Below, piece after piece: positions 1,022 to 31,100 of a DNA stretch of 31,430 nt (the first letter of the stretch is position 1; every line of letters starts with the position of its first letter). A model generated the notes under the pieces. That model made no database searches. It saw nothing but the letters and a program-made list of their open reading frames with translations, and had not been told where the DNA came from. The DNA comes from Candidatus Thorarchaeota archaeon (lineage in GTDB: Archaea; Asgardarchaeota; Thorarchaeia; Thorarchaeales; Thorarchaeaceae). The stretch is taken from NCBI GenBank assembly GCA_029855925.1, contig JAGSHP010000001.1:1-31430 (forward strand), in the 5' to 3' direction. The position numbers and the translations under genes were made by a program.

Positions 1022-1027
1022 TTTAAT

Positions 1028-1117
1028 ATGCAATTTAAAGCACACAGGGTTAATAGAGTCCTACTCTTTTTCACCCTAATGTTATGTCTTTCGACAATGA
1101 TACATGTGGCGTCTGCC
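1028..1117 (+). other. Sec-type signal peptide (30 aa)
   Basis: MQFKAHRVNR (basic n-region), VLLFFTLMLCLSTMI (h-region), then HVASA|TE with an A-S-A cleavage motif. Confidence 0.75.
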
Positions 1118-7100: not shown

Positions 7101-10100
7101 GGATGTGGATAGTAGCGACAGCATTCAACACTACCACGAATAGCACCAGTGTTGAGATGTTCAACTATGAGTTCACGGAATCTAGGATTTACTCCGAGAT
7201 TCCAGACAAGAGCTACCAGAACGTTCCCGTATACATCTACGGTGATGGTCTTGATTCGTTTTTCGTGGAGTTAGGTCTGCGCATCACCGATCAAACGAAC
7301 GTCAAGTACATCACAGACAACGACCTTATTGACATAGTCTTCTCGCGCAAAAAAGGACTGGTAGTTGTCACTACTGACACCGTGCCAGCAAAGGTCATGC
7401 TGGCGGCATCAAGCGGCAAGACGTACTTGCGTGAGTGGCTCGAAGATGGCAACCAGATAGTGAGTGCTGGTGTGTTGCCATTCAGCAATGTGATCAACAA
7501 CGGGCAAAAGCTGGACACCTTCGATTTCCTTTACGGGAACGAGATCTCTTCCAGTGGTGCTTCACGTATCACAGAGGCGCTGATCACGGGCCATTCTGCC
7601 AGTGTGACTCAGGCGCAGGCGGCGATATACCAGAACCCCGCGGGTACTAACAACACCTACACGATGGAGCTGGGCGGTGAGGTAACGGATGACTACATCG
7701 AACTCAGTGGCAACGCGATTGATAATGATGGATCTATGACCTTCGTGTTCGGCATAGCAGCGGCTGATTGCAACTCGACACCGAAGAGGTACCAGACCTT
7801 TGACATCACCTTTGACGGGCACACAATCTTTGACAGGTTCACGCTGGACCAGCTGCGTACAGCGAACCACAATCTTGGTTCGAGTGGTGTGTTTTACGGC
7901 AACAATGCACGATTGTATGTACAGCACGTTGGCAATATAGAGCAGATTGATGGTACTGTGGACTGTGACTTCCTCATGTACCTGACTGTCGATGGTAGCT
8001 GGTTCTTCAAGGGGCCTCATACAATTGGTATACATGACAGGGATGACAATAGGAATCCGTCCATGCAGACCATAAGGGTACTCGAGCTGGGCAACATTAT
8101 GGAATATGAGAGGCTCAACAGACGCGAAACATTTGAGCGTGTCTTGGCGAGGTATCAAGGCGTACCAGAGATAGGCGCCGGTGTATTCGCCGTCACGGGA
8201 ATGGATATGGTGGTTAAATCGAATGAGGAACTCAGGAGTTCCTTCACCCTTAGCAACACAATCGGCCTAGATCCTGTGGAATCGATATACGCGATTGACC
8301 TGTCAGCCGTGTCTCCGTTCAAGGTCTATGGTGTCGATCTGACGGGCAAGTTCGGCGAGGCCACCGTTCGTGTAGGTGGCGGCTATTTTACGATGATTGA
8401 CATTGTACCATACTCAATAAACAACTGGGACACGATTGCCAAGCTACAGTACGTGCTGACTGGTGTGGTTGGCGACTGGACATGGCAGCACAGTACACTT
8501 ACTACTGATGGCTTCGGGCTCTACGTGAACGGTCAGACGTTCGAGGGCATGACCCACATGGTGGACACTGTCGACACTAAGGCACGGGTACATCAGGCAC
8601 TGGTGCCAAACAGGGACCTGAAGAATGATGGCTCCTATGCGAACTCCTTTGACACGGTATCGAACGTCAGTGCCGTGAACGCTACATTGGAGTGGACTAA
8701 CGGTGCAGTACTCGTGAATGGCAGTGCGGCTGGTGCGTCTGGCCAGTTCAGCATGACTGTGACCGGTGCTGACATGACAGACGACTATCTGTTCGTATCA
8801 GCCTACATGGTCAACTGTAGCCTCTCTGTGAACAGCACAGTGGGCAACATTGGTAATGTCCGTAGCAACGGCATCAGTATGTTCAAGCTTAGCACCGGTA
8901 CGCATACAAACATCTCCTTCGTGGCAACATCAGATGGTGACGGTGCATTGTTCAAGCTATACTGGATGTCCAGTTCTAAGACGCCCTTCCTGATGAGCGA
9001 CCAGCAAGTGGTGGTGGAGGATTTCTATTCCGTTGACAATCTCGTTGCATCAGGTTTTGAGTCTGATATTGTGACAGCATCAGGCGGTCTTCTGACCTTT
9101 GCACATGACGGTCTTGGCAATGATGTGGACTCGGTGTATTTTGACACTGAACCCATCCACGACCCAAGATTGATCCTCGAAATACGGCATATGGTCAATG
9201 AGACTGTGCAAGACATGGTCATCAGTGTCGTATTGCACTCAGAACAGAGATGCTCTGGTTTCAACCAGACTATCGTGCTTAATCCGAAGACATCTATGAA
9301 TACTGAGCGACACCATGTCACACTCACCACAATCCGTTCGATAGAGCTGAGGTTGTCATCACCTGCAGTTAGCTCCAACATGGCATGGATTATTGACTGG
9401 CTGGAACTCTCGGTGGACTCTGACATAGCACTCACGATGGATGACCCGATGTATGTGTCATCTATTGGTGATGTTGTGTACGAAATCGCTGGTGATGAGC
9501 TAAATATCTACACAAACAGCACAACAACAGTAGAGGTATTTATCCCTGATGTGTTTGTCAACACCGCAAGCTACCCGTACATGCATGTTAAACATTCCAA
9601 CAATATGACCAGTGCTAACATCACCCTTTGCACGACTGATGGAAATTTCAGCTACACACTGTCAGACACTGGACTTGATATGTTCAATCTTACTACACTG
9701 GAGGTAGACATCACCAGTATTGCAGTGCGTGTGACATCCGATGGTGCGAACCGTACCTTATCGCTCGATGCGATTGTCTTCTCTGACATTGCAACAACAC
9801 TCAATCAACGGAACAAAGTGACGGTTTTCTACCAAACAGATACTGGTCTCTCAACAATCGTGTTAGACGATCATCTGATGTCATGGGACGTAGGTCTGCT
9901 GACCATTGGCAACGACACATGGGTTGGCTCACGCACCGAGACCAGCATCGTCGAATGGACATGGGATGTGATGATTGTGCGTCAGGACATTCTTGATACT
10001 GATGCTTCTGTGACCGTGATGTTCTTCAATGACGGTCTCATTGACTTTTTCATCGACACTGATTCGTATGGTGTCATTATGAACCATCAGTACACCGCAA

Positions 10101-13100
10101 CCAAGTACTCTGATAGCTTTGGTGTAGTGAACAACACTGTTGTGAGTGATATTATCCGAACACCGACCTTTGCTGCGATGTATGGCAGCGGTGTTGGTCC
10201 AGCGGTCACCGCACTTGACGGTGAGAGGGTCACGGCATCTGTGCCGATGTCACGGTTCTCCATTGACATGAATGCCAATGACTCCGCCGTGCTTATCCCC
10301 TTCGTACAAGAGCGTTTCGAAACCATCGCTGGTGTCGAGATCGATCCCAACTTTGTAGTTTCAATAACTGATGTTTCAAAAGGTGGACTGCTCAGCGGAT
10401 GGACAGGAATTATCGACTCGCAAGACGTTGCGTATTGGGATGGCAGATTCAGTGAAGTCTATGCATTGCATGAGACCTTTAGTGGCAGTAGTAAGTGGAT
10501 TATCGACAACGAAGGGCAGACTATGGACACCAAAACAGCACTCGAAAAAATGACGGCCGAATCCATTGACGGGAAAATGATACTGACCCTTAATGCCAAC
10601 GAGAGCACCACAGAGACCGTGGTCATGAAATACAACTTTCTCGACATCCCAGTGAAAAACTACCCATTCTTCAGGATTGTAGCATCCGGTGATGAGAACC
10701 TCACGTTGACTGTCAAGATTAACATCACAGGTGAATCCGTGCTCTATGATGTGTGCACAATCACGCCCACGGAGAAGAATGAGGAAACAATCAAGAACAT
10801 TTATTACATACTCGACAGCGCTGGTAGGCCGGATGCTGTCATTCAGGGTGTGGAGATATGGATTGAGGAGGTCTCGCCATCAAAGATCTGTAACAAGACC
10901 GTGATGCTTGATGAAGTGGACATATACGCGATATCCGGCTTTGAGGCGATTATCATACCGAACTACACAAACGAGAACTCTGTGGCGAAGAGCAATGGTG
11001 CAATGCTCACACTGTCTGCGGACAAGGAAAAAAGGATGAGGCTGCGCAGGATTATGGAGCCGCGGATTGACACCACCATGAACAGGATATTCCAGTGGCG
11101 AGAGTATGTTGGTTACGAGTCCACGATAAACATAGTCGTGACCAATAGCTCCAGCAGTTCATATGTTATAGACGAGGATAACACCAACTGGGCAGTGGTC
11201 ACTGACGATGTGTCTGAGATTCTCGAGATTGCCGAACTCAACATCACGCATGTGTCTGGCGCAAACACCGAGGGCGAGTCTCATATAGACTGGATTAGGG
11301 TGATGAAGCCTTACACCTCCCTCTATATGTGGGAGGGTTTCGATGACGGATCATGGACACCGACTGGCGGTTTCACACTCAGCGCATTCTCAATGCCTGC
11401 GCCTTCTCCAGATAATGAGATAAACGAACCCTGGACAGGTTCTGTGTCAGGACAGTCGGTGGAGCGGTGGTCGAGTTATGACGCCGACCCGGGCTCGTTC
11501 AGTAACGGTGGGCATCTCTCGATACATGACGCCACCCATTATGAGTGGACACAGTGGTACATTGCAGACGTGACACGGGATCACGGGTACACCAGTCAGC
11601 ATACCAACATCAACAACGAACAGGACTGTGGTATCGATGACGGATACAAGGCGGCACAGGCTGTCGGTCCAATTGCGACAAATGAGTACGTGACGGCATT
11701 CAAGGTCTATATCAAGGCGTGGGAAGACCCATTGTTCATAGGAAAGAACGTTCGATGGCGGGTATACTCTGGTACGGAGACAACACCCAACTACAACTCG
11801 ATATTGCGATCTGGCAGTTTTGACGCCTCCACATCTGCATTTGGCTGGTATACCATATCGTTCTCCGCAATATACGGCAGCAACTCATACCTCTGGATCT
11901 CCGTTATGGGCAATAAGTATCTGGATCATGGTGGTGGGCTCTCAAATGATGAGCATCCCACTGCCGATCAATATGTCTATTCCAGAGTCTATTGGAAGTA
12001 TGACTCCACCTCGGACAGCAGTCCGGGAGGGAAACGGTATCTGAGTGGCATTGGCAGTGACTGGTATGACTTTGCGGTTCAATATCGGAAATACACAAAG
12101 TACAGTGGGTCATCAGTCTATAACTATGGTATCACGATTAACTGGCACGACAGTAGCGGGAACCATCAGCAGCAGTTGTCCACGGATGGTACAAAGGTCA
12201 CACACTCTGCAAGCACGGACGATGTGTGGGTGACCGCCGTTTCGTCCATTACGAACATCAATCCCTCACGAGTGGTTTCATACTACAAACGTCCTACAGC
12301 GAGTACCAGTGCCTACTTCTCAGCAGACCCCGACACAGAGGTGACAACATGGGAGTTTCCGAAGGACTTTGTACTGACCAACTACGGCGACCATGATAAT
12401 ACGAATGACGGTAAGTTCAGGTTCAACAAAGACTCGTCATGGTCGTACTCAAGCATAAGTCCCACGGGGCCCTCAGTGACTATTGTCGGGAATCAGGTGA
12501 CTGTCACAAATGTGGTGTACGGGACCGCGTACACACTGACATTCACACAGTCAAACACTGCACTGACGATCACACCAAAGAGGACCGATTCAGGGGGTAA
12601 TGTGTTGGAGGACGGCCCTGATGATGTACCATACCTGGGATATTCACGAAGCACCACCTCTGCAGGTGCGGGCAACAATGGCATCTTCTATGTATACGGA
12701 TATGTCTGGGACATGATAGACGGACACAGTGCCACTCTTGAGTTCAGTGAGACCTCCTCAAGTGGGCTGAGTACATACACAAGTAGCAACAGGCAGATGA
12801 CCTATCCGGTTGACTCCGGCCTCTACTATCGGGTGTGTTGGGCATCCGACAGTGGATTGAAGCGGTTTTGTGAGGCTGAGGGTCACTACATCCGCGAGCC
12901 TGCACTTGATACGGACCTCTCCCACAATCCGAGCTATGACTCCTCTCAGCAGTCCAATAGTGAGCATGTGGAAGTGAGACTGGACTACATGTATGGTTCC
13001 AGTGACATCACCATGCATTATCGAGTTGGTGGTGGAAGCTGGCAGACCACTGTGGAGTCCGGTGTGACCCACGGTCCCACCGGTGAGCAGAACTATGCTC

Positions 13101-16100
13101 ACTTCACCTTTGATGACTTTCTGGGGGTTTCTGACGAGGAGAAGACAATCGAGTTCTACTTCACGACGAATGCCTGGGGCGGGCCCCACACCTTTGACAA
13201 CGGTGGGAACTACTGGTCATTCTATCTTGAGGACAGCGACACGGATGGTCCATCCATAACGAGTGTGTGGCCATCCGATCATGGTACTGTCATGGACAAC
13301 AGTGCAAATGTAAGATATGGCGGCGTGTATGGTGACGGAGAGATCAAGGTCTATGCCACCATAACGGACCCATCAGGTATCGAACATGCCGAGGTCCACT
13401 GGACCTATCAGGCAGGCGGCAGTGGGACTGTGAGTCCAATGGAGCACTCCGGAGACCTGTATTGGGCATGGGTCCCGATTTACTATGTTGATAACCCTGA
13501 ATTCAGTGACTACCTCAAATTCAACATCACTGCGTATGACAATGATGCGAGTATCTCATCGAGTTCTGAAACCAGGAGTCATATTAGGGTGCAGGATGAT
13601 GACTATCTCGCCCCGACTGCAAGTGGCCTCGACAGTGGCACATTCATCGTTTCCCAGAGTATCTCTGACAGCGGTATATGTACCGACTACAACACCGGTA
13701 ACTCTGGTATTTCCACGTCGTTCTCAAATGTGACATGGTACTGGACGGATGCACCAGAGACCGTCTACGAGGCAGACACGTTCAGCATCACGCCGAATAT
13801 GAACAACGGTTATGACTGGTCATATACCATATCTTCCTCGCATTGGACCGAGGCGGACGAAGGTAGACAGATTACTATCACTCTGAATGTTGTTGATGAT
13901 GACGATGACAGGGGTGCAATCGACCGTATGGCCGGCTCGTATAGCTGTCAGTGGACAATGAACGACGACGACACCACGGCACCAGTCATCGAGGCCACTG
14001 CCACATCACCCACAATGGACGACTCTGTGGTGCAGGACTTTGTGCTGTATGCGAAGATCTCTGATGCAGGTCCAGACGGTGTGAATGTGGTCAAGTTCAA
14101 GTATGACATAGGCGGGACCACATATGGGTCATTCCGGACCGCCTCCGACAACAACGGCACATGGTGGTGGTACAACATTCCATACTCTGAGTGGAGTGCC
14201 GAGGTCCAGAATGACCCGAGCGGTAAGACGGTGTACTTCTGTGTATACGCACAGGACGGTGACAACAGTCCGCTCTCGGTACAACAGAATGACATAGTCG
14301 GGAATCAGGTCAAGGACAATGACGCACAAGGGCCGAGCATCAGTCTCGTGAGTCCAATTGAGGGGTCCTTCAAGTATGATGCCGAGTGGCAGACATCAGG
14401 AATTGAGGTCTGTGTGACTATCTCCGACTCATCACCCCTGGACAGCAACAGCATTGAGTTTCAGTACAGAGAGCAGGGCTACAGCTGGGGCGCCTCTTGG
14501 TATGGATACACAAGTTCCGGTTCCGGAAAGTACTACTTCACAATACCCGACTCATGGCTGGACGCACATATCAACAGCATTGTTGAGTGGCGTGTGCATG
14601 CAAGTGACGCAGACAACAGTCCCACATCAAGCACGAGTGCGACGTTCAGTTTCCATGCAGACGATGATGATACCGTCATAGCGTTCTCGGAGTTGGGTCT
14701 GAATAACCCAAGCACAATGTACTCGGACAAGTCGTACACAATACGGATCAAGATCACTGAGGGCTCAGGAATAGACGCACAATGGGTGGAGTGGTGGTTC
14801 ACCGGTGAGGCCCACCACGAGGAGAACATGACCCTCGAGTCACAGAACGGAAACGAATACATCTACAAGTTCACCATAGCTGCCCCGGGTGACTCTCGTG
14901 AGAATACGTTCTTTGAGTGGACGGTGCATGCACGAGACACCGACAACGACAGGGGCGACATTGACAAGACCTACCAGACCAGTCATCGCGACAACATCCC
15001 GATAGCAGATGATGATGCCGACACACCGGACATATACAACACCGTCACGAGTGGTGACATTCTAGACAACAACACAGGGAGTTACATATTGCGGGTATAC
15101 GTGAATGACGAGTCGCCGGTCAACGTGACAGTGTGGTACAGGTACGGCAGCGGTTCATGGTATGGTCCATTCAACATAACTGACTCGAAGGTCGCCGTGA
15201 ACAGCACCGCGTCTTACTTCACATATTACATAGCAAGGACTGGCGGCTGGCTCGACCATATCGGTGAGATGATCTACTGGAATGTCACGGTCTGGGACAA
15301 GGACAACAGTCCTCTCAAGACCGAGATAAACAGCATGCAGGCAGGTACACCGACAGATGACGACACGAGTGCACCGTCACTCACTGGCGAAGACCCGTCG
15401 AACGGTGCCTCGATAACCGATGGCTATATTGTCACACAGACGCAGGAGAAAATGAGGGTGGAGTTCAGGCTGACGGACAGACTCTCTGATGTGTCGTGGG
15501 TCAAGTATAAATGGTCCTTCAATGACGGCCCGTGGAGTGACTGGCTTGATGCCACGCGGTGGTATAACCCTGATAAGACCGACTGGTGGTACTTTGACAT
15601 TGACTCCGATCTTCTCCTTGACAACACAGGCAAGACGTTCAGGTACTACCTCTGGGCCTCCAACGGCGACAACGACAGGCCGAACGATGCCGAAGAGTAT
15701 CTCGAATCATATCCGAACAACTATCACTGGTTCATGATACGGGACGATGACATATCTGAACCGGACCTGACGCACGTACAGCCGAGTGCCCCGGTGTCGA
15801 ACACGGACTTCACACTCTCATTCACCATAACAGACACTGATGGCGAGAACGGTGAGAGTGGTGTGTCAGAGGTGGTCCTCTACTACAGGTATAATAACAA
15901 TGCATCTTCATGGATGACGACAACGGCATACTCGAAGAACGGTGACGTATACAGGTTCACATTGAACTTAGGGGATGACTGGGAGGCGTACGGTATTGAG
16001 TACCTCGTATATGTCAAGAACGGCGATACTGATCGTGGTCTTGCAAATGATGCAGAGTACGGGTACAAGACCGCCACGGGATCATACCTCTCCCTCTCGA

Positions 16101-19100
16101 ACGCTGAGGGTAGCGGGTGGAAGCTAGCAGTGCTGGATGATGACACTGCGGCACCAGTGATAAGTGACATTGATACATCCGGTGTCAATGACGGGGGTCA
16201 GTGGTGCTTCAATGTCACGCTCAGCGACATGTCCGGTATACACACCGCATATGTCTCAGTTGATGGCAACATCAATCAGACTCTGATTCTCTGGGACAGC
16301 AGTGTTGATGCCGATTACTTCAGTGTAGACAACTATTACTTCTATGTGATACTCGACCCACTGCCACTCAATGGCTACCATACAATTGAGGTCTTTGCAC
16401 TCGATGATGATGGTGTCGTGTCATCGGACAAGCTGTGGAACAGTCAGTCTGTGACATTCCTGTCGACAGATGATGACATCAAGGCACCTGATGTGAAGGT
16501 ATGGATCCCTGATGCCGAATACGATGCGATAGCGACCATCTATGCCAATGTGACCGACTACAGTGGCATATCCGAGATCACGGTGTACTTCTGGCAGGGT
16601 CGTGGTGTCACCTCTGCGTCAATGGTGCTTGATGCCACATACAACGGCACATCTTGGAGATACAGGTACGATGTCTCACCAGAGCAGACATACTGGGGCT
16701 CCATGCTCTTTGCATATGTCTACGCTGTGGACGATGACTACGACTTTAGCAACTCGTCCGACCACAGCAGTGTGATCACGGCCACGGTGTATGGTACGAT
16801 AATAGACTCCACCCCACCGATAATAGATTATGTCACAGGACCTGTGGGCACGGTGGAGTACAGTGAGGACAATCGCGTATGGGTTGTAGCGTATGAGCCC
16901 GAGGATGCATCACTCGTTTCTCATGCGTACATGAACTACAGCCTCAACGGTGAGTGGTTCCTCGTGGAGATGGGTTATGTGAACAGTTCACTGTCCAACG
17001 GGCAACACTATAAGACGTTCATGGCCAGACTGCCGCTGAGATACGGAGCGACCCTACAGTATCATGTGATATGTTATGACAATGCTGGTAACAGTGTGAC
17101 GAGCGCCACATATACCGTGGAGAGTGTTGTGGACACCACACAGCCGGAGCTGCTATACTCGCAGGTGATGTATGCGGAGCCCGGTGTGAACGGTACACTC
17201 ATTGCAAAGTTCTACGAGCCCGATATTGCATCCGGTCTTGTATACGTACAGGTGAACATCAGGCTCAGACAGAGCGGTACATGGGGCGACCTCTATCAGA
17301 CCAATATGACCTACAACAGTAAGGCTGACACATGGGTGTTCACACTCCCAGCAGTCAGTGAGAATGACGAGTTCCAGTACTGGTTCAGTGCAGAGGATGC
17401 AGCGGGTAACATGTTCACAGGAGAAAACATAACATATGTGGTGAAGGACTTCTTAGAACCGACCATCATTGAGACCGGAGTCCTCAACTCTATAGAGGAG
17501 CCCAATAAGGTGGCATATCTCAGGACGATGTTTGCTGTCGAAACAGAGGGAGTCTACAGCCTCGTGGCACTGCGGAACGGCGCTGTCGCCAACATGACCC
17601 TGTGGCTGGACGGTGACGAGATTCCGAGTGGTGCACAGGTCATGCTCTCTAGTAGTGTACACATCGTCATGGTCAGGGTCGAATCGGCTGACATGTATGC
17701 GATGTGGGGTGTGCAGGTCATGAACATGAAGTCAGAAGTCTCTATCAATGAGACCGCCCTCGCATTCAACCTCCTGATGCCTGCACCACCTGCGGACGAG
17801 CTACGCATCGAGCGTGTGGGTGTCCTGGGTCCAATGACCGGCAATGACTATTATGCCACATACTCGTACGACGACATCGCCATAATAGAGGGCGACTTTG
17901 AGAACAGTGTCGACAGCTGGGAGTACGTCAACGCGAGGAGACTCAGTGCTCTTGGAATCGATGGATCATATGCACTTAGTCTCTGTAGTGACACAGGCGT
18001 AGAGGGTAGTGCGTCGTATGACTATGCAGGCAACATCACTGCTGACGCTCTGGCTTTCTATTACAAGTTCAACAGCAATACCGACTATACAGGTCTCGAT
18101 GTTTCGATCGGATACATGGATGGTGACTGGCTCAACCAGACGCTGGTAATCAATGAGACCGTCACATGGAAGCAGGTTGTAATCCCGATCAGACACAAAG
18201 AGATATCGGTCGTGGTGCTATCACAGAACACTGACAACACTGACCCATACGCCCTACTTATTGATGATGTTTCGCTCGTGACAACGGAGCTTGTGAAGAC
18301 AAGCTGGAGCACAAAGATGTATGACGACCTGTCACCTCACAAACTACTCGAAGTTGACGCAGGGACCGTTACAATGGAGTATGCTGGATATACTGAGTTT
18401 GTTTCACAGGTCGATACGAAAGCAGTCCTCGATGTCACACTTGTCAATGGTGTGCAAATGGATATATACTCCGGAGTGGTCAAGATAGCCTCAATTACGT
18501 CAAGTGCGAATGTGCCATTAATGGTCACGCGTGGATTGAATGTTTTGACAGTGTACATCAATGCGACAAACGCCAAACTGGGCTTTGTAGGTATGTATCT
18601 CAGGTTCACAAATGGCACGCAGGTGCCTGTGACTGTCCTCGGATTGAATACTGGTCTAGCATCACTGACTGATAGTGAGAGCGCGATTATTATACCACTG
18701 CTCCCAGAGTTGTGGCAGGTGGACGAGCAGAGCACCACAAATGTCACAACGACTGCCAACGATGACACATGGGAGATCGAGGCTGAGATTGAAGTCGCCT
18801 CAAATGATGACCTGACTGATGACATTGTGGTGTTCAATATCACAGAGGGCTTTGACATTCGTGTGATGCCAGTGCTTGTTTCAGAGATCTGTACAAATGA
18901 CACATCACTGATGATCAGGTATATGGCTGAACTCCATTCTGCCTCGACAGGTGAGTCAGTCTGGGTAGCCATAGACTGGATTAATGCGAGTGTGGGCAAC
19001 TATATGACTGATCTGACATGGGCAGCTGCGCAACAGTTCGGCACCTCTGCGGGAGACTACGATGAGTTGCTAAGCCTTGAGTTATGGATTGGGGACCTTA

Positions 19101-22100
19101 CGGGTGACGGCGCGTTCATTACGGACACGGCGAGCGTGTCTGTCCTGACCTACTTCAAGTCTCGTGTTGGTCATGTCTACGAAACGGTCCCGAGAAACAA
19201 CGGATACAGCAGTCTTCTCTCTGACTTCGACATTGCCATGGATGACTTCAACATATCTAGCAACGCGTTTCATGGATATGGCTCTGCGCTGGTTGGTGGG
19301 AGCAATGGCGCGTTGACAATAGATGTGTCAGAGGAGCCACTCCCAGAAATAATCAGGTTCTTCTGCAACGGTACAGTGTCTGTAGACATTAGCATATCAC
19401 TGGACGGCAGTAATTACACGGTCAATGTGATGGACACGCCAGCTCAGGACAGCTGGTCCACGGCATTCACTGCCAGACGTGAAACTGTCGTGGGATGGTA
19501 TGAGTACATCATCGACATACTTAGCACCGTGAAATCACTAGCTGTCGACAATGATGTCATGTTTAATGAGATCTATATATTTGAACTGACATTCGATTCT
19601 GCTGAAGCCAGTACTGTGGTTATAGATTCATTGAAGTTAGAGAACCATAGGGAAGTCATAGTCGAGATACCATACTGGGATGTTTCGATGGTCTGGGAAA
19701 CGAGATGCCTCGGCTTCCATCTTGTTGGTACCGAGGGACTGAGTTCTGTGAACCAGCCGTATTACAGTGTGGACTATGATGGTATAACTCTTGAAACAAC
19801 AGATAGATCATGGTATGAGGTGACGAACCTGTTCGTTTCTAACTACGATACAACCGCCGTAGTGGTACAACAGGCATACGGGATGGGACTAATTATAACT
19901 GACACCTATTTCATAAACAACACTGGATATGTATCATTGGACAGAAATGTAAGAAAACTTGGCAGCCCAGATCTCTATTCCAATGAAGTCATGATGACCT
20001 TCAACTATGATTTGGGCAAGGTCATGCAGGACTACTACATTGACTCTGCAAGCGTGCCTCTCTATGACTTTGGTGGTGTACTTCTGAGTCATGCATCCGA
20101 CGGGATTGACAATACTCTGGATGTCGATGTTGTTGAGGAGGACGTTGACTCGCCATACTTCAGTCGCTCCATGAGCACCATTGTTGACATAAGCAGCTAT
20201 GAGGCCTGCAACATCGTTTCTGATGGTGACCTGATGAGGATGGCACCAGAGTACAACAAGGACTCTTTCTGGGCAGAGTACTCTGGATTGAACATTGACA
20301 ACAGTATTGCAAAGTGGCTCATGCTCTCGGTGGAGAATGTATACGACTACATTGGATATGTCGAGTTGTATGGTCCATCTGGTTTTCTCGTGCGCCATGA
20401 GTTCAACAAGTCAGGAAGACATACATTCGCGCTCTCACTGTCTGAGAATATCGTAGCGGTCAGAATAGGCGCAGAATCAGTGACACTATCAAACATACTC
20501 ATGGTGGACTGGCTGACCATCAGAGAGAGACCGTTTGTGGTAGATCTCCCACCGACCTCAGATCTCACACTGAGAAGGCACTATCCCGATTTTGTAGAGG
20601 ACTTTTCTGACATCTCGGGCTGGGACTTTGAGGAGTATAATGTCAGTAGTACGGAGTACTTCCAGTGCGGTGTCAATTCTGGTATGCTCATCTTTGAAGG
20701 CTACTTCCGTGAGAGTCATACGGACACAATTGAACTGACAGGACTCAACATTGACACATTCAAGTACCCGAACTTCAAGATGAACTACCAAATCGAGCAG
20801 AGAGGCCTCATAAACGGGCAAGTCACATTCAAGATTCATTATGTGAAGAACGGTGTGGAGGGTGTAAATACATACTACATCTTGACAGAAGAGAGCACAT
20901 CAGGTGATGGGGTTGTCACAGAGAACCTAAATGTCACGACGGACGGCGGTTGGGTTACCAGCATAGAGATTGCGGCGGAGGGGTACAACGGTGCTGACGG
21001 GGCCTATAAAGTCTGGATTGACGATATTGTCATTGTCGAGGATACACTCGAGTACTACTACGTGTTTCGTTCACCGTTCTTCAGCGACAGCTTCACCTCT
21101 GTCAGTGATTGGAATAATGCTGACGGCACAGGATCTGTCACTTCATATCTGAACAATGACGGTATCAAGTTCACATCAACCTCAACGACTGCGAACTTCA
21201 GCAAGGACTGTCATCTTGAAATAAGATTTGACTCTGTGTTGGAGTTTGAGATAATGAACGGCGCTGGCACAATGCCTGACAGGATATGGGTGGCCTTTGA
21301 TCTCCACAATACAACGAGAGTGGATGTGATGGAGGTGACATCTCCGAGTGCAACATATTACAGGATGGACCTTGAGAATTTCACATCACTTGAAGTCGAC
21401 AAAGTTGTATTCGGTCTTGAAGGTAGTGGTGATGTATTGGCATTAGACTACATCAGAATCTCGGAGGCGTACAGCGCTCATGTATCATGCCGTCACATAG
21501 GTGGTTGGACAAGTACTGCAAACAGGCTCATGTCAGATGGGGAATCCGTCACAATCGAGGCATCAGTTGGTTCATGGAGCGCCAACTTCATGTTCCCGGA
21601 GGCACTGCCGTCATCAGTATATTCCACCCTGCGAATCGAGTACACGCTCGATCATTCCTCAGACGGGCCAGAGATACGACTGCGTGGACTGAACGGTGGC
21701 GATACGTACGACCACCTGTCAATGGACGAGATATATGAGGATGACTGGATTTCACCATTCATAGCAGACGGCGAGAAGCATACACTCTACCTCGATGTTG
21801 CAGAGAGGTTTCCGGGCAATGCGCTCTACCGCATCGAGATACGAGACACATCATCAGAGATGTACAACCTCACTATACACAGCATAAATCTCTTGGAGAA
21901 ACAGGATGACATCGCACGAGTCGGGTCATCAGGATGGACGTCTGCGGCATTCATGACTGAAGATGCACTCCGGTTGCAGACAATTGCCGATATTCAGGGC
22001 TCCTATGGTCTTCAGTTCAATATATCCGTTCATGGCAGTTTTGCAGAAGCGATACGTGTTGAATACTCATCAGTCATCAATGCAGACATAGATGCTTACC

Positions 22101-25100
22101 TCTATGTCACCACTAACAACACAAAGTACGAATACAACATTCCGTTGTCGGCATGCCGCACAACGCAAATCATCAGTATAGCAAATGTCACGGATGAGAT
22201 ACTAGATGTGGGAATCACGATGAACTACACTTGCAGTAACGATGAGTATCTCTGGCTTGATATCTATGACCTCAAAATACTCTCAACCCCGCTCATCTCA
22301 TATGATAGGTTTGAATCATTCTCGGCAGGGACAGCAACATTCACAGACATTATAGAAACACTCTATCACATCCAGACGCTAATCAATGAGGACGTGGTTG
22401 ATCAGACGACTGGCACCGATGTAGGTACACACTCGGACTTCACAAATCTGCAGAATGCCATAACACTACTTGACACAATGACAGAGGGACTGACAGGTAC
22501 ATGGGGTTTTGACGGTGAGTTCAATGTGTCAAGCTACCTTGAAGTCCTTGGTGCAGTCGTCGAGATGTCAACCTACTGGCATCTCGATGAGGCGGACTCT
22601 GGCGATGCAGGACCATATATTGATGTTGCCGACTCCTACAACATTGTGTTTGGCGATCTGTTGACATCCGGAGTGCTACTTATCCAGACACTCGGTGATG
22701 GAGAGACATTGAACATCACGGAGCATGATGATGGTACACCACTATCAGAGCTCTACACGGCTGTGGTTGACTATCACAGTTGGACTGGACTCATCAGTGG
22801 GACAATAACAGATGTTCAGACTGATGATGCCAACTACATGACACTCACAGAGGAAGATGCTGGCGTGGCTGCTGTGAACGGTGAGCACGGCTATGACACC
22901 AGTAATGACAATCACTTGCCGGCCGATGTTGGTGTGGAAACATTACCCAATAATGCAAATGATGGTAACATTGTCACGGTGATGACGATCGCAGAGTACA
23001 ATTCCGGAGAAGCAGGAAACCTACAGTTTGAAACAATAAAGATCACGAATGTAGGCACCGACTGGGTAGATGTGAACTTTGCAAACACATATGTCAGCCC
23101 AGTGGTGATTGCCACATTGGAGATTGGTGCTGGGCATGATCCAGCTGTCACAGCCGTCGACCATAGAGTTAATGCGGTGACGAGCACTGGATGCAAGGTC
23201 AAGATGGCAATTCCTGACCATCAGTATGGTGATGGCAGTTATGTGAATGGTACAATATACCTCTTTGTTGTGGAAGAGGGCAGCTGGGACGTTGCTGGAC
23301 TACCAAAGATTGAGGCAGGAATACACACGACCAGTACTGTTGTGGCAAACACCTATGATAGTGCTGGAGAACAAGTCATACTCAACTCGACGCTCTGGAG
23401 TGGTGTGTCACAGGCCGAGTTCTTTGTGACTGTCGGTACTGAGAATCAAGCGGCAACAGGAAGCAAATGGATTAGTGCATGGGTCAATGGTGGGAGCAGG
23501 ACCACTACCCCAACCACGAGTTCGTTCTATATTTCAATGAGTTCTGCAGAGTGTACTCCACAAGACAACCACCCGCAGGAAGATTTGCACTATGTAGTGA
23601 TTGAGAACGGCATATTCAATTATGGTGGAATGCACATGCAAGTCGGTCGAACAAGTGACACAATTGACGAGTACACTTCCAACAACCTATACACTCACGA
23701 GTTTGGGCATACGCCTGTCTGGGGTGTCAACCAATACCTCAGAATGGATGGTAACAACGGTGGATGGACGAATTGGGCTGACGGGCCGTTTACAAGCACA
23801 ACAATAGAGCCATACGTTCAGGAAGACAGGTGGCAAGACTCAGAAGTGGCACACACGACCACACAGGTCAGCTACATACTCTGTACAATGGATAACTACT
23901 CTACATCCCTCAATGGTGATAATTACGACCTCGACTTAGAGTATCAATTCAATGGAGTGGACACAAGTACCACATATGCAAACCTATCGATATACATCGG
24001 GTACCACAATGGCACTGAGGATCTGAATGTGGACTACTGGAACGGCACCAGTTGGAGTAGTCTGGGGATGGTACCTGCCGATATTGACTATCAGTGGTAT
24101 AATATAACGATTAAGGACCCTGATATACCCATTGATGTCCTCAGTTCCGACTTCGAGATACGGTTCGATGCCATCACTAATACCAGTGATGTAACACACG
24201 ACTCTTGGGAGATTGGCGAACTTGTGATTCACACATGGACCCCTGCCGTCATAGACTATGAGATGAACACAAAGTTCGATTGGGACACCACTGCGGACGA
24301 TACGAGGACCTATGGAGTGGTGATAATCACAGTTGCATCGTCGAGCACAGAGGCTGCCTTTATTGAAGCATGGGATGGTGCCACATGGAATAGAATTGGT
24401 ACAATAGACAGTGGAATATCCTCTGACATTACCTATCAGTTTGATGTGAAGAACGATACTGTTGACTACATCCTCGGTACAAACTGTACAATTCGGATCA
24501 TTGGTGTCGATGAATCTCTAGACGCTACACAGGACAGTTGGGACATTGACCTGATTGAACTACATACATGGACCCCAGCAGTGGTGAACTACAGGTTCGA
24601 TGTTGACTTCACATGGAATAGTCCCGTCACTGATGCTGAGATGTCATCCGTCTGCATGTACTTTGAGGGTAACTATGGAAATGAGCAATTATCAGTGTAC
24701 TATGACAATGGTGGCGGTTGGACAAACACTGGTGAAGTGATACCAGCAGGACTGACTGGCTGGAAGAACATCACAGTGACGGGTCTGGTGACAACATCTA
24801 CCTTTAGAATCAAACTCGTGGGCCAGTCAGAGTCATCAGATATATCACGGGACCGGTGGGACATTGATTATGTTATGCTGAGAACTTCCAGTTCAATCAC
24901 GAGCCTTACGGCGTATGACACACTAACAACGGTATATGGTCACTGGTTGAATCAGGCTAATGCACAGGACATCGGTGGCGGATATATGACAGTGACCGAA
25001 ACGGAGAACGGCACACAGTTCACAGATTTGAGTGACAGTGTAGATGCATATCTTGCATTCACAGGAGTTGTGTCACTGTTTGCGAATGCACAGTCACTTG

Positions 25101-28100
25101 ATTCCAACTATATGACACTGACAGAGGAGGACACAGGTACTCCAGCAACAAATATGGAAGATGCTGTTGATAGTAACTCATCAGATGTGGACTCATCGCC
25201 TGACAAAGGTATTGAATCAAGTTTTGCCAACGCACAGTCCTATGATGGCGCCAGCATGAATATCACTGAAGAGAATACGGGTTGGAGCCCAGAAGAGGGC
25301 TTCAAGACCTACCATGGTTCATTCGAATTCACAAACACGCTCGGTGTCACCACCGATGTAAGTATCGGTGCTGTTGTCAACCCCAATCACGCGTTCATCC
25401 GGGTATACACTGCAGGTTCGTCAACACCGAACACACCCACAGAGGGTGCTGTGTCGGGTTACATCCTTAACTCCACACATATCAGGTTTGAGCGGAACAC
25501 TGCCGTTTCAGGTTTGTGGGTATCATGGTTTGTGATTGAGTGCTTCAACAATGAGTTCACAGTACGTGCACGTGGGGATATCGAACTACTCTCCGGAGCA
25601 ATGACAGGATCCGCGAGTGTTTCGGGGGTACAAGATATCAATAGGGTGATGGTGACGGAGTCTCATAGAGGCAGTGGCAGCAGCACCAGCGACTGGAGTG
25701 ACACATTTGCGAAAGCATACATGACTGATGTGTCCACCGTAATGGTCAAGCGTGCGAGCAATGGTACAACTGTCAACATCAGGTATGAAGTGGTTGAGTG
25801 GCGTACCGACTTCAATGTGTATCGCGGGACCTTTGTAAAAAGTGCTACCACTCAGACGGTGGACATTGGCGGGACAGTGGACCAATCACGTTCATGGGCT
25901 TATGCAACATGGACAGCTCCGACTGATGGGATTCAACAGGTGCAGCTGGCTTATGGAATTATTTCTTCCACCCAGTTAGAGTTTCTTCATTACTCGGATA
26001 ATTATGCATGTGATGTGCAGTGGTATGTTATCGAACATCCGACAAATCTTGCACCGACAATCACGAGATATAGCTATAACTGGGACCCGACCACAAGTCC
26101 GGACAATGTCAGGACGAACGCCATAGGCACTGCGATTGCAACGGATCAAACATTCATACACATGAGTTGTACTACCTCTGGTACTGGTACCGCCTTCAGG
26201 AGAGACTTTAACCTTCCGAGGTTGGTCAATGCCACCTCATGGAGTGAAACGCAGTACAACCCGACTACTGCCAGCTATGATCAGCATGAGACGCGTGCTG
26301 CGGTGATTGAGCTGCCATACTCACCAGGAAGCAGTGACAATTATGAGATCAATGCGGAGTACCAATGGAACACTGCCCACTACACAGAGGTGAATGAAGA
26401 GGTCTGCATATATGTTTCATCTCACAGTGGTACAGAGGTTCTGAATGTTGAGTACTGGGATGGCGCTGGCTGGAGCACCATCGGCACGATAAGCAGCACG
26501 GGTTGGAGCAACATCACGGCGGTGGGTCTCACCAGCAGCACTTACACTATACGAGTGGTTGGCGGTATCGAGGCCAATGACACATCTGCGGACATCTGGT
26601 ACATCGACTACATCGGTCTTCACACATGGAGTGATGCAGTCGTAAACTACGAGATGAATGTCAGATTTGACTTCACAGATGTGGTGACCACACACGACCA
26701 CACTAACCTGACGATTTACACAGATGCTGTGCAGACAGAACCCCTGAACATCAGCATCTACAATGGTGTGGGATGGACAAATCTTGGTCAGATCAGTAGT
26801 GCTGGTTGGAATAACTTCACGATTGATAGCCATGTTGCCTCAACAATCAACATAACCCTGTTTGGTTCCGACGAAAACAATGATGCCACACAGACATCAT
26901 GGGACATCGACTACGTCGGTCTGTACAGCTGGACTGATGCTGTCAGTAACCATAGAACTGAGGCAGAGTTCACATGGAGCAACATTGATACTGGTGCGTC
27001 TGAGGCGTATGTCACGATATACGCAGAACAGTTATCCACAGAGATGCTTGAGGCCTGGGTGTACGATGGTGCATGGCACTATCTCGGAAACATCACTAAT
27101 GCGCATGGTTGGAACAACTTCACAGTCACAAATTACTTTACGAATCCGAGCTTCAAGGTCAAGATAGTGGGCGCCACTGAATCAGCAGACCCCTCTCAAG
27201 ACACATGGCAGATTGACTATGTCGGTCTTGAAACTCGGGTTGTGCAAAGAAAGAACTATCTGGTCAACATTGAGTGGAACTTTGATGGTATCACAAATTA
27301 TAATGAGGACAACGAACAGGTCTGCATCAATGTGCTCACCATGGGTAGTGAGACACTGAATGTTGAGTACTGGGACGGCGCTGGTTGGAGTCTACTCGGC
27401 ACAATTACTGGCATAGGTTGGAATAATTTTACGGCTCTTGATCTCACAGGTTCGAGTTATAAGATTCGACTAACAGGCACAGATGAAACAAAGGACATCT
27501 CACAGGACTACTGGAACATTGACGATATACTCTTGCACTGTTGGAGTGTCCGAAACAACTACGAGCTGAGTCTTGAAACACAGTGGAACAGTGTCGACAC
27601 CAGCGCTGATGATATTGAGTTGTGCATCTATGCGGACACGCTGGATACAGAGGATATCAAGGTGGATATATGGTACAACAGCAGTTGGATGACCGTGCTC
27701 ACCGATCTTGTACCGAACTCATGGAACAATATCACCATCAAAGGATACATTCAATCGTCAACGACAAAAGTGAGGTTTGTTGACGGTACAGCGGCACAGG
27801 ACGAGGCACAGGGATCATGGAATATCGGTTCCGTCCTGCTCAGGTACACGACAAACAGTATCGCAGCACCAATTCAGTATAGTGCAATTGAAACGCCTCT
27901 CATTGGTGGAATGTGGTACACACCCGACTATAACATTACTGTGGTGTCATGCAATGGTGAGGTATATGGCAAGCTGAACGCAACAGCATCTCCCATCACT
28001 GCAAAATGGATGGTGAACGGACCAGTGTACCACGGTGACGCGATCATGATGCGTTGGCGATACACGATTGACACAGACCCTGTGAGTTCCACATATCAAT

Positions 28101-31100
28101 TGATTATTGAGCATGACAACATGAACACGACCCTTGCCATTTTGCCGAACGGGTTCACCAAAGGCACAAGCAACTGGACCCTCACACGCGTGGCACTCAA
28201 TAATATTGGCATAACACATGTCAACAATATCTATATCCGTGCTGAGTCCGGGGTGATGCACATTGACTACATCTGTATTGGTCACGGTGGTGTCATCTCC
28301 ACGGGATTACTTCAACCGAGTGACGTGGTCGGTGACCTGAGTACTACGTCATACGGCTTTGATGTGAGCGGTATGGATCTTGTAGAGTTCACATATGACA
28401 ACATCAATCTCATGGTGTCTAACGACATCTATCTATCGATGAATGTCTACTTGGACTCGAACGATGAACACTATATCGTCATAGACGGCATATATCGGAA
28501 TCAGACAGCTGGCACTGTGACATACATGATTCCAAACATCGTTACGGGATGGAACAAGCTCAGCATGAACATAACGGACATTGTAACCACCTATGGACAG
28601 ATGGATCTCGTCGACAGGGTGACAATCCGAGCAATAAGGCCCTCTTTCATCGTGAGCATGCATGTCGATTGGATAAAGGTCCTCACCCACAGCAGTAAGA
28701 CGGTGATGTCTGATTACATAGAGATAATGGGACTGAAAAACACAGACGGCATAATCATCTACGACATTGCTGATTACACACAGGGTTTCACGCCGACTGG
28801 TGGTAACACGCTCACGGCCGTTGGTGTGAATGGTGAAACTGAAATGAGCGTAAGCATGTTTGTCGGTGACATAGACTACTCTGACCCAATGCCAGCACAC
28901 CAGCTTGCTAACTACCTATATGATGGCGTGCCGCTCGCTGTTACATACTGGCCAAAGTCATCATTGAAGATTACAACTAATGGACATGACATGGATCTCA
29001 GAGTCGAAACACCCAATATGAAATTCACATTGGGTGATGATGTTAATGCGGTGCTCGATTCTGTCGATGTGATCAGGAGCTACGAACAGGTCGAGATACG
29101 GATGACAGGCTGGGTCGACGGGAAACAGATGAATAGGACATATGTGATACGCGACTCGGGTGAAATCAATTGGACAACCTACCTCGATGACACCATGACA
29201 CTGGACAACTTCCGCATCGACAGTAGCTATTTCCGTATACAACCAGATCTACATTACATAAACACCTTCGAAACTGTTAATGTCACTGCTATCTCTGGTG
29301 TAACAACATCACTGACTAGTGCATTAACCGAGGGAAGCAATGCAATTTCCATTCAGTCATCAGCAGCCTCTGGTGGTGTCAGAATTGCGGATGGATTATC
29401 CCTCTCAGGTGATGACTATTGGAAAATTCGGTTCGTTGTAAGACCCACATCTAGTGACATAGACATGAAAGTACAGCTCACTCTTGACGGGTCAGAGTTT
29501 GCATATCTATTGTCAAGAGACAACGATACGCACTTCGAGTATGGAGAAGACCTTGTATATAATGAGCGGCAGGTCATCATGATGGATAGGTATTCCTTTG
29601 ACACCGATCTAACAGATAGGACCATCAAGGCCGTTAGTGTCTACATCGGCAATGGTCATAGTATAATCATTGACGACATGTATATGTCGGACATGCCAGT
29701 TAGTAATGGACCGCAGTTGCTCTGGACCGTGAAGAAGGCAAGCAACAGCAGCTATTACTCCTACCTCGATCCGTCAGTGAGGTACACTGACAGTGACGGC
29801 ATTGTCATGTATTCTCTTGACAGCAGAATCGGTATGTCTGTAAATGCAAACTGTTCAATGCAGAACGGCGACTTCGTAACTCTGCTGAATGGATCACTGT
29901 ATGTTGGTCCATATGCAGATGATGAGTCACACATCTATGCTAGAGAGGTCACACCGTCATCGGTCCTTGACATAGATGAGGAGGGCAGTCTGGTGTACTC
30001 TGTCGACATGCGGAACGGCGAGGACAGAGAACTCACTGTCATATTCAAGAACAATGACAATAGCGTCTTCAAAACGGTGATCGTGCACAGCACAACGGGT
30101 GTAAACGACATTGACAACGGAATTATGTATCTCAACAAGACCCCTGGGAGCATTCATCAGGTACGTCTCTCGATACCCACAGTCCTGTTTATGCTCAACG
30201 AGAGTGGTGATTTGCCTGACCTCTACAGCTTCACAACAAACGTGACGGGACGTGTGGTACAGGTGATGACAAAGCCGGTGTCCCCACTGCTTGAATACTT
30301 CACGGTGTCTACAAAGCTCATAGAGGAGGTGGCAGGCGGTGTTGATGAACAGGGATACATAACTAACTGGATTGCGAGCCCGCGTGATGCGATGGACAGA
30401 TCCCTGTATACATCTAGGAACGCAGAGGAGTTTACATTCATTCACAACCTCCATATATCACAAGAAGACATGGTCAATATGACATCGTCCCACTACCTGT
30501 ATCTCAACTTCTTCACCGATACAGACTTCCCGGACTATGAGAACCACACATCAACCAGCGGTGAAACACCGGTATATAGGATGGCTGACTCTCTGTCGCA
30601 CTCCGGTCTAGAGTACTACTTCGAGCTCACGGTGGAACGCAAGTACACAACAGAGTGGGAATACCTTGACGGTAAGTGGGGCAACACCATCACAGACGAC
30701 TACTACTTCAGCATAGTACAGAAGGAAGTACATGAAGGGTGGGTACAGTCCAGCAAGGTGATAGCCAGTTGGACTATGAGCACATCAGAGGTGCAGCAGA
30801 AGTGGATGTTCTGGGAGTATGACCTCACTCATGGTAGGCTCCAATACAGCTTTGTTGACGATGATGGCACGCCGACCTCCAAGCCGGTCACAAAGACATT
30901 CATACAATATCATGAGCTGAATACATTGACTAGCATAAGCATACTCAAGCTCACCAACAATGCCAGCTTCTACTTAGACGATGTCTCTGTTATGACACAG
31001 AATGGCACAAAAATGATGTTTCATGACGACTTCAGCTATGGTTCCGTAGCCGAAATGGCAACACACGGTGGCTGGGTGTGTAGCGGAGAGTATAATGCAG

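Follow-up and report, generated by a model that had tools for sequence, protein, structure and literature searches.

A forked side-branch of nested, split beta-sandwich domains is predicted in a giant Thorarchaeota-like protein

Residues 7121-8941 of a giant protein encoded on a Thorarchaeota contig are likely to form a side-branch of nested split beta-sandwiches, in which a two-domain trunk bears two three-domain arms and two heads. Two kinds of segment, termed X and A, follow one another in this module in an order that reads as a string of balanced brackets, and such an arrangement is the norm across a large, as yet unnamed family of surface and pilin-like proteins from archaea. The core idea, that an X and a distant A are the two halves of one domain, is supported by four independent lines of evidence, drawn mostly from the family: the bracket grammar, the covariation of X with A, contiguous X-A domains and, for the giant protein itself, AlphaFold2 models. 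Within the window, that is, the whole 31,430-nucleotide stretch of DNA analysed here, direct support was obtained for the pairs X8-A4, X7-A5, X5-A1 and partly X4-A2. The outer levels would be completed by X1-A8, X2-A7, X3-A3 and X6-A6; topology is what assigns the last three, while X1-A8 also fits a covariation signature.

Results

A module of eight X and eight A segments

The window, one contig throughout, contains a single giant open frame (Table 1). The encoded protein has a Sec-type signal peptide at its start and is longer than 10,134 aa; the frame is open at its 3' end, the C-terminus lying beyond the end of the contig. No family rose above threshold in a Pfam scan of the entire protein: DUF7265 reached 14.2 bits against a cut-off of 24.6 and DUF4999 17.7 bits against a cut-off of 25, and Pilin_N (PF07790) had no match, the N-terminus being Sec-type and not class III.

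The original prediction described eight X and eight A segments in a definite order, and profile searches bear this out, six of the X being solid. An HMM built from the module's own eight A segments picked out these and no others in the 10,134 aa, with E-values of 1e-35 to 1e-41 and a next best match at 0.23; a scan of the whole genome added a single further copy, on contig C449, to the eight. The A pieces, about 100 aa long with the opening motif N-Y-x-L-x-x-E-x-Q-W, start at aa 7632, 7742, 7853, 8438, 8539, 8640, 8742 and 8843. A family X HMM built from other proteins detects X1 and X4-X8. X2 and X3 are not significant with this HMM (score -2.9 even in a one-sequence search space) and keep only the terminal strand motif Y/L-x-L/I-x-E; X2, originally singled out as the least conserved segment, is indeed degenerate, but X3 is missed likewise. 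None of the X or A segments was found elsewhere in the giant protein, and X6 directly abuts A3, with no linker.

Table 1. Features of the giant open frame and of its X/A module.
Feature	Position	Strand	Evidence	Role
Giant open frame	1028..31429	+	Frame call, Sec-type signal peptide	Contains the module
X1 (aa 7121-7157)	22388..22498	+	Family X HMM	Outer trunk domain, proposed partner A8
X2 (aa 7158-7192)	22499..22603	+	Degenerate, terminal strand motif	Proposed partner A7
X3 (aa 7193-7236)	22604..22735	+	Degenerate, terminal motif	Arm 1 base, proposed partner A3
X4 (aa 7237-7279)	22736..22864	+	Family X HMM	Partner A2
X5 (aa 7280-7327)	22865..23008	+	pLDDT and partner states	Innermost arm-1 domain, partner A1
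Head 1 (304 aa)	23009..23920	+	E 1e-148 to P0010 insert	Tip of arm 1
A1, A2, A3 (aa 7632-7953)	23921..24886	+	A HMM E 1e-35 to 1e-40	Proposed returning halves of the three arm-1 domains
X6 (aa 7954-7995)	24887..25012	+	Family X HMM	Arm 2 base, proposed partner A6 by topology alone
X7 (aa 7996-8037)	25013..25138	+	pLDDT	Partner A5
X8 (aa 8038-8085)	25139..25282	+	pLDDT, covariation	Innermost arm-2 domain, partner A4
Head 2 (352 aa)	25283..26338	+	E 1e-101 to 1e-125 to P0152-P0158 inserts	Tip of arm 2
A4, A5, A6 (aa 8438-8741)	26339..27250	+	A HMM E about 1e-40	Proposed returning halves of the arm-2 domains
A7, A8 (aa 8742-8941)	27251..27850	+	A HMM E 1e-36 to 1e-40	Proposed returning halves of the two trunk domains

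Proposed architecture

The module runs X1-X5, a 304-aa insert, A1-A3, X6-X8, a 352-aa insert and A4-A8. With X2 and X3 accepted as X, the string is balanced and describes eight domains nested to at most five levels, with one fork; the two inserts, which we call heads, occupy both innermost bracket positions.

In the architecture that we propose, each X and its bracket-partner A would make up one beta-sandwich domain of ~140 residues, split at a single hairpin by an insertion. The X piece (~40 aa) would run from a short strand through an acidic DVD-type loop and a one-turn helix to the Y-x-T-L-T-E strand, and the A piece (~100 aa) would contribute seven strands; the insertion site would be the tight hairpin of 2-6 residues that joins X to A in unsplit relatives. 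The first strand of X would adjoin the last strand of A, so that a whole domain could be plugged into the hairpin of another copy. Repeated insertion would then produce a stalk leading out through the X pieces to a head at the tip and back through the A pieces. The trunk would consist of X1+A8 and X2+A7, and two stalks would be enclosed in tandem within the same hairpin: arm 1, made of X3-X5, head 1 and A1-A3, and arm 2, made of X6-X8, head 2 and A4-A6. The outcome would be a forked single chain, Y-shaped by virtue of its topology, which shows two unrelated heads and branches off the side of the giant protein. Its most likely function would be that of a rigid two-headed cell-surface adhesion module.

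Balanced brackets across a protein family

Since balance in the giant protein alone has a chance of 1/9, the evidential strength of the order comes from the family. A search with the A profile led to 931 representative proteins (clusters), and the grammar was scored with iterated X and A HMMs on the best 150 of these. X and A are equal in number in 95 of the 150, and all 95 are balanced, against 28.7 expected by chance; the perfect balance noted in the original prediction extends to these equal-count relatives. The commonest strings among the best 150 are XXAA (59), XXAXAA (12) and XXXAAA (10); P0002 is nested six levels deep, and P0007 five levels with a fork. A segments outnumber X segments in 53 of the 150 representatives, many of which are N-terminal fragments, and some A domains of the family may lack a canonical X. 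In P0005, P0159 and P0160 a different N-terminal strand segment replaces the outermost X. The domain family has no Pfam entry, and a literature search found no paper on it.

Covariation of X with its bracket partner

In the family, X clearly covaries with the A that is its bracket partner and not with the protein's other A, which provides a within-protein control. For XXAA proteins, the top 20 corrected mutual-information values sum to 5.2 under nested pairing versus 2.9 under swapped pairing. Coupling is strongest between the final strand of X and the opening strand of A, and between the first strand of X and the last of A. Paired states are D/T, H/E and Q/Y at X12-A99 and H/L, E/F, L/Q and Y/R at X20-A34, and in proteins whose domains differ in state, the bracket pairing is consistent in 9/9, 13/13 and 10/10 cases. 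In leave-one-out runs, a model trained on nested pairing recovers it in 56 of 64 cases, while a control trained on parallel pairing recovers that pairing in 37 (chance, 32). Trained on simple nests, the model puts the bracket pairing at the top for 13 of 23 proteins with a forked or tandem layout, where chance would give 5.4. Where X and its partner A are of the same subtype, the two halves may have descended together without being in physical contact, which would still imply a single domain.

In the giant protein itself, X8-A4, X5-A1 and X1-A8 fit known family states. X5 and A1 carry the common partner states H(X12)/E(A99) and E(X20)/Y(A36). In X1, X-column 20 is H and column 34 is D; this state accompanies L at A-column 34, an L that in the giant protein occurs in A8 and A1 only. 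The 8x8 matrix of covariation scores has a single positive cell, X8-A4. A model trained on other proteins does not pick out the bracket assignment here, which ranks 4,266th of 40,320, because most residue states of the giant protein are unseen in the training set.

Unsplit relatives and structure prediction

Contiguous X+A homologues, whose existence was anticipated in the original prediction, were found in P0102 (Hodarchaeota), P0151, P0018 and P0034, with a loop of 2-6 residues at the insertion point. AlphaFold2 modelled a construct of the giant protein spanning X7 to A5 with a mean pLDDT of 80.7 and a pTM of 0.61. In this model pLDDT is 92-97 for X8, 90-94 for residues 20-42 of X7 (its C-terminal half), 93-98 for A4 and 82-95 for A5, and mostly 85-95 for head 2 except at model residues 353-431. 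In arm 1, X5 is at 84-93, the C-terminal half of X4 at 60-84, A1 at 87-96, A2 at 61-90 and A3 at 77-91. X8, the C-terminal half of X7 and X5 are placed confidently although 300-450 residues separate them from their partners. X3 was not placed (pLDDT <45), though its proposed partner was, which indicates that an A segment can be modelled lacking its X; the alignment covered X3 by just two near-identical sequences, and a low confidence is therefore expected there. The view of X+A pairs as split domains is in this way upheld by structure prediction for the inner pairs, with X8, X7, X5 and part of X4 confident, and not for X3. Fold searches yielded no clear structural relative.

Heads and exchange of arms

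Head 1 aligns, at 29% identity, to two tandem units of ~290 aa in the bacterial protein P0163, one of which carries a Pfam H_lectin match. As head 1 itself has no Pfam match, H_lectin (PF09458) included, at E up to 1, its relation to H_lectin is indirect; it is probably a glycan-binding head. Relatives of head 2 occur in P0152-P0158, which have pilin-like N-termini and include proteins of the layout X X head A A, and a fold search with head 2 gave nothing beyond generic phage-tail-like fold matches. The labels first attached to the heads, lectin and tail-fibre-like, are therefore only loosely echoed, by an H-lectin-bearing related module and by these generic folds.

Each arm has counterparts that are smaller, free-standing proteins, in some cases with an archaeal pilin signal peptide, which shows that such units pass between proteins as cassettes. 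Over 95% of its length, arm 1 is 51% identical to P0010, and the stretch X7-X8-head 2-A4-A5 matches proteins of ~810 aa with archaeal class III signal peptides. Pilin_N was found in the relatives P0012 and P0164.

Alternative readings

The weak X2 and X3 invite a reduced version of the architecture, with only six true split domains (X1+A8, X4+A2, X5+A1 and X6-X8 with A6-A4). X2 and X3 would be decayed or unrelated linker, and A7 and A3 would be X-less or completed by non-canonical strands; the forked topology would be kept, with a looser trunk and arm 1 base. Such a view would account for the failure of X2 and X3 with the family X HMM and for the confident A3 beside an unplaced X3, and it finds parallels in the surplus A segments of relatives and in the three proteins with another strand segment in the outermost-X place. 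We nevertheless consider it unlikely. The 92-aa gap that houses X2 and X3 has the size expected for two X units, both stretches close, where the spacing would predict it, with the strand motif and a G directly after it, the terminal strand of X3 is conserved in the homologue P0010/P0165, which has its counterpart at the N-terminus, and the low pLDDT of X3 is what its alignment depth would predict.

Full nesting, which remains our preferred reading, also has to be weighed against two more distant views. If the A segments were complete domains strung like beads, and the X segments unrelated small linker repeats, self-folding or flexible, balance would result from block duplication only. The good model of A3 next to an unplaced X3 suits this arrangement, as does the 1/9 chance of balance in the giant protein alone, but it is already disfavoured, and to our mind very improbable, in view of the balance in 95/95 equal-count representatives, the partner-specific covariation with its within-protein control, the contiguous X-A units with their short loop, and the pLDDT of 85-97 reached by isolated 40-residue X7, X8 and X5. 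The X of one chain might otherwise complete the A of another, through domain swapping or donor-strand exchange of the kind seen in several archaeal filaments, and so lead to polymerisation or to the cross-linking of cells. Reassembly of a split domain in trans has a precedent in the Jo/In halves of RrgA D2 (PMC5333627), there are many pilin-like proteins among the relatives, and partner-specific covariation is compatible with cis and trans pairing alike. We give this possibility very little credence: pairing in trans needs neither equal counts nor a strictly non-crossing order, the near-zero linkers set each X beside its bracket partner in cis, and the monomer is predicted with confidence.

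Discussion

The long surface proteins known so far resemble strings of beads, and nested adhesins of the RrgA type stop at two insertions. The nested module described here would depart from both. In streptococcal antigen I/II, the chain also runs to a head and back, its N- and C-terminal parts pairing along the stalk; this stalk is an unbranched alpha-helix wound with a polyproline helix, whereas the X/A stalk is predicted to consist of all-beta sandwiches and to be forked.

The closest known analogue is RrgA, the tip adhesin of the Streptococcus pneumoniae sortase pilus, in which domain D3 is inserted into D2, and D2/D3 into D1 (PMC5333627). RrgA is likewise a surface adhesin whose stalk domains arise from N- and C-terminal pieces, the halves forming one beta-sandwich, and its binding domain lies mid-sequence, yet at the tip of the molecule. 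Its nesting involves different kinds of domain, goes two insertions deep, has no fork and is locked by isopeptide bonds, whereas the giant protein would nest one domain type in its own copies, at up to five levels (six in a relative) and with a fork. No Pfam match in the giant protein connects the two, be it to a vWA-type D3 or to another domain, and RrgA is absent from its PDB sequence matches and fold matches. The design had originally been judged unusual; it is not confined to the giant protein, and within the family forks are present in 15 of the 150 representatives.

Two other comparisons concern pilin-like proteins. The two-level relatives P0152-P0156 have homologous X and A and share with the giant protein both the insertion hairpin and head 2, at about 40% identity across about 80% of arm 2. 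These proteins of ~810 aa carry a class III (pilin-type) signal peptide and have two levels and a single head, in contrast to the eight domains, five levels, two heads, fork and Sec-type signal peptide of the giant protein, which exceeds 10,000 aa. The combination of a pilin N-terminus with a displayed binding module, seen in relatives of the X/A module, recalls the modular type IV pilins PilB and PilC of Streptococcus sanguinis with their grafted adhesive module (PMC8179133, PMC9934059). In these pilins the module is appended or inserted once, with no self-nested stalk; the giant protein, unlike them, has no pilin N-terminus.

On balance, we lean towards the view that self-insertion of a domain into its own hairpin is a general archaeal construction principle, which yields rigid tree-shaped chains and follows a balanced-bracket (context-free) grammar in place of the tandem repetition that governs known stalk proteins, the giant Thorarchaeota-like protein being the most elaborate case in our sample. 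A domain that is both host and guest of insertion offers a simple evolutionary route that does not break the fold: a stalk may gain a unit, a head may be swapped at the tip, or a second arm may be added. If confirmed by structure, the module would represent a new architectural class in protein-domain grammar, supply a natural scaffold for presenting binders on rigid branched stalks, comparable to the use of RrgA Jo/In, and give a lead on the way in which Asgard and other uncultured archaea fasten themselves to their partners. As the family is hundreds strong and has no Pfam model, a definition of the domain would by itself annotate many "hypothetical" proteins.

Segments and their order in the giant protein

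Contig C81, which the window spans in full, belongs to a fragmented 2.2-Mb genome bin of 75% completeness. An MBL-fold hydrolase of this bin, a housekeeping protein encoded at C228:17327-18595, shares a 90%-identity cluster with proteins from Candidatus Thorarchaeota bins; on this single taxonomic pointer, the source is most likely an Asgard archaeon. An HMM derived from the eight A segments returned exactly eight matches in the whole giant protein, with E-values of 1e-35 to 1e-41 and a next best match at E 0.23, and the eight X segments were found at the positions that the original prediction had assigned to them. An X profile rebuilt from other proteins matched X1 and X4-X8 (6/8), whereas X2 and X3 gave no significant match to it. 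Segments follow one another as X1-5, 304 aa, A1-3, X6-8, 352 aa, A4-8, and the observation of the segments and their order is confirmed. For this protein alone, the chance of a balanced order is 1/9, so that the real test lies in the family.

Coordinates of the features discussed in the text
Feature	Position	Strand	Remarks
Upstream frame	window 1-828		5' end open; leucine-rich-repeat protein (Pfam LRR_8, E 1e-40)
Giant open frame	window 1028-31429	+	>10,134 aa without stop; 3' end open
X/A module	aa 7121-8941 of giant protein		termini at window 22388 and 27850; ~7,100 aa precede and >1,190 aa follow within giant protein
Arm-1 construct	aa 7193-7953		
Arm-2 construct	aa 7996-8639		X7 X8 head 2 A4 A5
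Region near end of head 2	aa 8348-8426 (~nt 26069-26305)		~80 residues
A segments with Asn-rich motif	window 23921-27850		8/8 segments
One-level family member (L009)	contig C449, ~nt 190-1070		signal peptide, one X, ~150-aa insert, one A, then Ig-like repeats

X and A as one probable split domain

X plus A make up one domain, as four lines of evidence indicate: unsplit copies, covariation, the pattern of couplings and AlphaFold2 models. Natural contiguous homologues, which the original prediction had anticipated, do exist: X and A stand side by side in P0102 (from a Hodarchaeota bin), P0151, P0018 and P0034. In these copies, 2-6 residues separate the X strand Y-x-T-L-T-E from the A strand N-Y-x-L-D-x-E-x-Q-W that comes after it, and this short join identifies the insertion point as a tight hairpin.

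Coevolution, proposed at the outset as a check, links each X to its bracket partner. Mutual information computed within one class of pairs (outer-only or inner-only, N = 64) is underpowered, and we therefore relied on a pooled comparison of nested with swapped pairing and on leave-one-out tests. Over 64 XXAA proteins, the 20 best corrected mutual-information values sum to 5.2 for nested pairing versus 2.9 for swapped pairing, position-class effects being identical in both. When one protein at a time was left out, a model trained on nested pairs recovered the nested pairing in 56/64 cases, versus 37/64 (32 by chance) for the parallel rule with a parallel-trained model. When 23 forked or tandem proteins were scored with a model trained on simple nests only, the bracket pairing came top in 13, versus 5.4 expected, and among the top two in 20. 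Covarying states are D/T, H/E and Q/Y at X12-A99, and H/L, E/F, L/Q and Y/R at X20-A34. Wherever the domains of one protein differed in state, they obeyed the bracket rule (9/9, 13/13 and 10/10 cases).

The couplings fall into two clusters. One joins X20, X26 and X34 to A34, A36, A98, A102 and A121, the A residues being alternate positions of the first, sixth and last A strands; the other joins X1 and X3 (X columns) to A120 and A122. The strongest couplings thus place the last strand of X beside the first strand of A, and the first of X beside the last of A. Such an arrangement would bring both domain ends side by side, letting a whole domain plug into a hairpin. Split-domain nesting is well supported.

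A bracket grammar shared by the family

Among 1.84 billion representative proteins, 931 matched a profile of the A alignment at E up to 1e-3; the best 150 of these were annotated with iterated X and A profiles. The numbers of X and A are equal in 95 of these 150, and the order is balanced in 95/95, versus 28.7 expected under random order. The commonest strings among the best 150 are XXAA (59), XXAXAA (12), XXXAAA (10) and XAXA (6). Nesting reaches six levels in P0002, while P0007 (XXXXXAXAAAAA) combines five levels with a fork; a fork within an enclosing domain occurs in 15 of the best 150 representatives. The innermost insert is usually a domain of ~150 aa or ~210 aa. A surplus of A over X is seen in 53 of the best 150; many surplus-A proteins begin within the repeat region, and many are probably fragments or carry an undetected divergent X, as with X2 and X3 of the window. 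Three proteins with one A in excess (P0005, P0159 and P0160) share a different N-terminal strand-like segment of ~25 aa, rich in N-x-S/T and lying right before the first X, which might be a non-canonical partner of the outermost A.

In the window's own genome, the A scan found one copy beyond the eight of the giant protein. It belongs to a protein of contig C449 that is a one-level member of the family, and whose insert looked, by appearance, like a MAM/CBM-type domain. Pfam has no model for the X/A family, and our literature search found no description of it.

Pairing within the giant protein

At the innermost level, residue states fit those of the family: E at X20 is confined to X5 and X8 as Y at A36 is to A1 and A4, and H at X12 of X5 is matched with E at A99 of A1. 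For the outermost pair, H/D at X20/X34 of X1 is matched with L at A34, which is present in A8 and also in A1. In the 8x8 matrix of X-A scores from the family covariation model, X8-A4 is the sole positive cell, and the full bracket assignment ranks 4,266th of 40,320 permutations; covariation scoring is weak here because the training set holds few examples of the states seen in the middle and outer domains of this protein.

Outer-level pairing is probable on a topological argument. Successive X units, and likewise successive A units, leave ~5 residues between structural elements, and A3 runs straight into X6. With such short spacing and adjacent domain ends, the X strand leading out and the A strand coming back begin side by side at each level, which leads to the non-crossing pairing X7-A5, X6-A6, X4-A2, X3-A3, X2-A7 and X1-A8. 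The chain would then form a two-domain trunk whose inner hairpin holds two three-domain arms in tandem. We regard both the complete set of eight pairs and the Y shape as probable, the outer levels resting on topology. As the chain enters by X1 and leaves by A8 at the same place, the ~1,820-aa forked module should itself be a lateral branch on the giant protein.

Three other readings were weighed against this nested, forked arrangement. One is a degenerate periphery in which X2 and X3 are non-functional. All that these two segments retain is the terminal strand motif and the G after it; they lie inside a 92-aa gap that is the size of two X units, and a stretch corresponding to X3 opens the homologue P0010/P0165. 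We consider such degeneration unlikely. That the segments are strung like beads on a string is very improbable given the unsplit copies and the family-wide balance of X and A, and a pairing of X with A in trans is just as improbable.

Compared level by level, the arms show modest resemblance, with identities of 45% for X4-X7 (the highest of any X-X pair), 40% for A3-A6 and 37% for A2-A5. These values are compatible, though not strongly so, with the arms having arisen by duplication and an exchange of heads.

Structure models

Structure was predicted in two pieces, using two-level relatives for the alignments, as in three-level MAFFT alignments the X segments slipped out of register by one unit and short fragments ended up dispersed. 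The arm-2 construct, with a collinear 59-row alignment, reached a mean pLDDT of 80.7 and a pTM of 0.61, with 92-97 for X8, 90-94 for the C-terminal half of X7, 93-98 for A4 and 82-95 for A5. Each modelled A has seven strands, to which the modelled X contributes short strands and a one-turn helix. In arm 1, X5 is also confident (84-93), but the C-terminal half of X4 reaches 60-84 and X3 stays below 45, and head 1 was not placed; alignment depth for X3 and head 1 is effectively one homologue. The models support the inner levels of the predicted nest, where we infer X-A contacts from model confidence.

The region near the end of head 2 (table) has pLDDT below 50 yet is conserved among homologues, and may be flexible or ordered by a ligand.

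A fold assignment for the X7-A5 model was sought with Foldseek against PDB and BFVD and set aside: there were many weak multi-sandwich matches at TM-scores of ~0.1-0.2, among them glycosidases with CBMs, phage baseplate and tail proteins, Vip3 and the PCSK9 C-terminal domain. An ESM Atlas look-up of X8-head 2-A4 was uninformative (scores ≤0.71). No Pfam family exceeded its threshold in the module, in either head or elsewhere in the giant protein. Among PDB sequences, the A profile and the two heads together yielded a single marginal match, to a beta-galactosidase accessory domain (E 3e-4).

Heads, likely function and known designs

A homologue search with the entire module recovered P0010 as its sole match; the complete fork is not known as a protein of its own. 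P0010, a separate 1,191-aa protein, is 51% identical to arm 1 over 95% of the arm's length. The part comprising head 2 and its two inner levels is about 40% identical to the ~810-aa proteins P0152-P0156. These start with an archaeal class III, pilin-type signal peptide, and Pfam Pilin_N is found in P0012 and P0164; no pilus gene cluster was seen in the gene neighbourhood of the pilin-like relative P0155. Head 2 also occurs in the DPANN-archaeon protein P0157 (Pacearchaeota, OYT40973.1; residues ~520-880, E 1e-125) with no detectable X or A around it, so that the head is a free-standing cassette common to archaeal phyla. Fold searches with the head-2 model gave weak, generic multi-sandwich matches, including many phage tail and baseplate proteins. 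Head 1 has no Pfam match itself; it is 29% identical to two tandem ~290-aa units of P0163, a type-9-secreted protein from bacteria, and one of these units has a Pfam H_lectin match. From this context, the most plausible reading of the module is a putative adhesin, a rigid stalk displaying two binding heads that can be exchanged.

Among known designs, that of the pneumococcal pilus adhesin RrgA comes closest. RrgA has D3 inserted into D2 and D2/D3 into D1, the D2 halves forming one sandwich (PMC5333627). Unlike the present module, RrgA has two insertions, involves unlike domains and is unforked (PMC5333627); we found no sequence relation between the two. Modular type IV pilins have one grafted module each. 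Homotypic, recursive and branching insertion of the kind proposed here is undescribed as far as our literature search could find.

The leucine-rich-repeat protein encoded beside the giant gene is probably another surface or interaction protein. A W-N-N-x-S/T sequon (N-x-S/T, at the start of the fifth strand) is kept at the same position in 233 of 245 family A copies, and an Asn-rich motif occupies that place in all eight A segments of the window; the sequon may be a conserved N-glycosylation site in each stalk domain.
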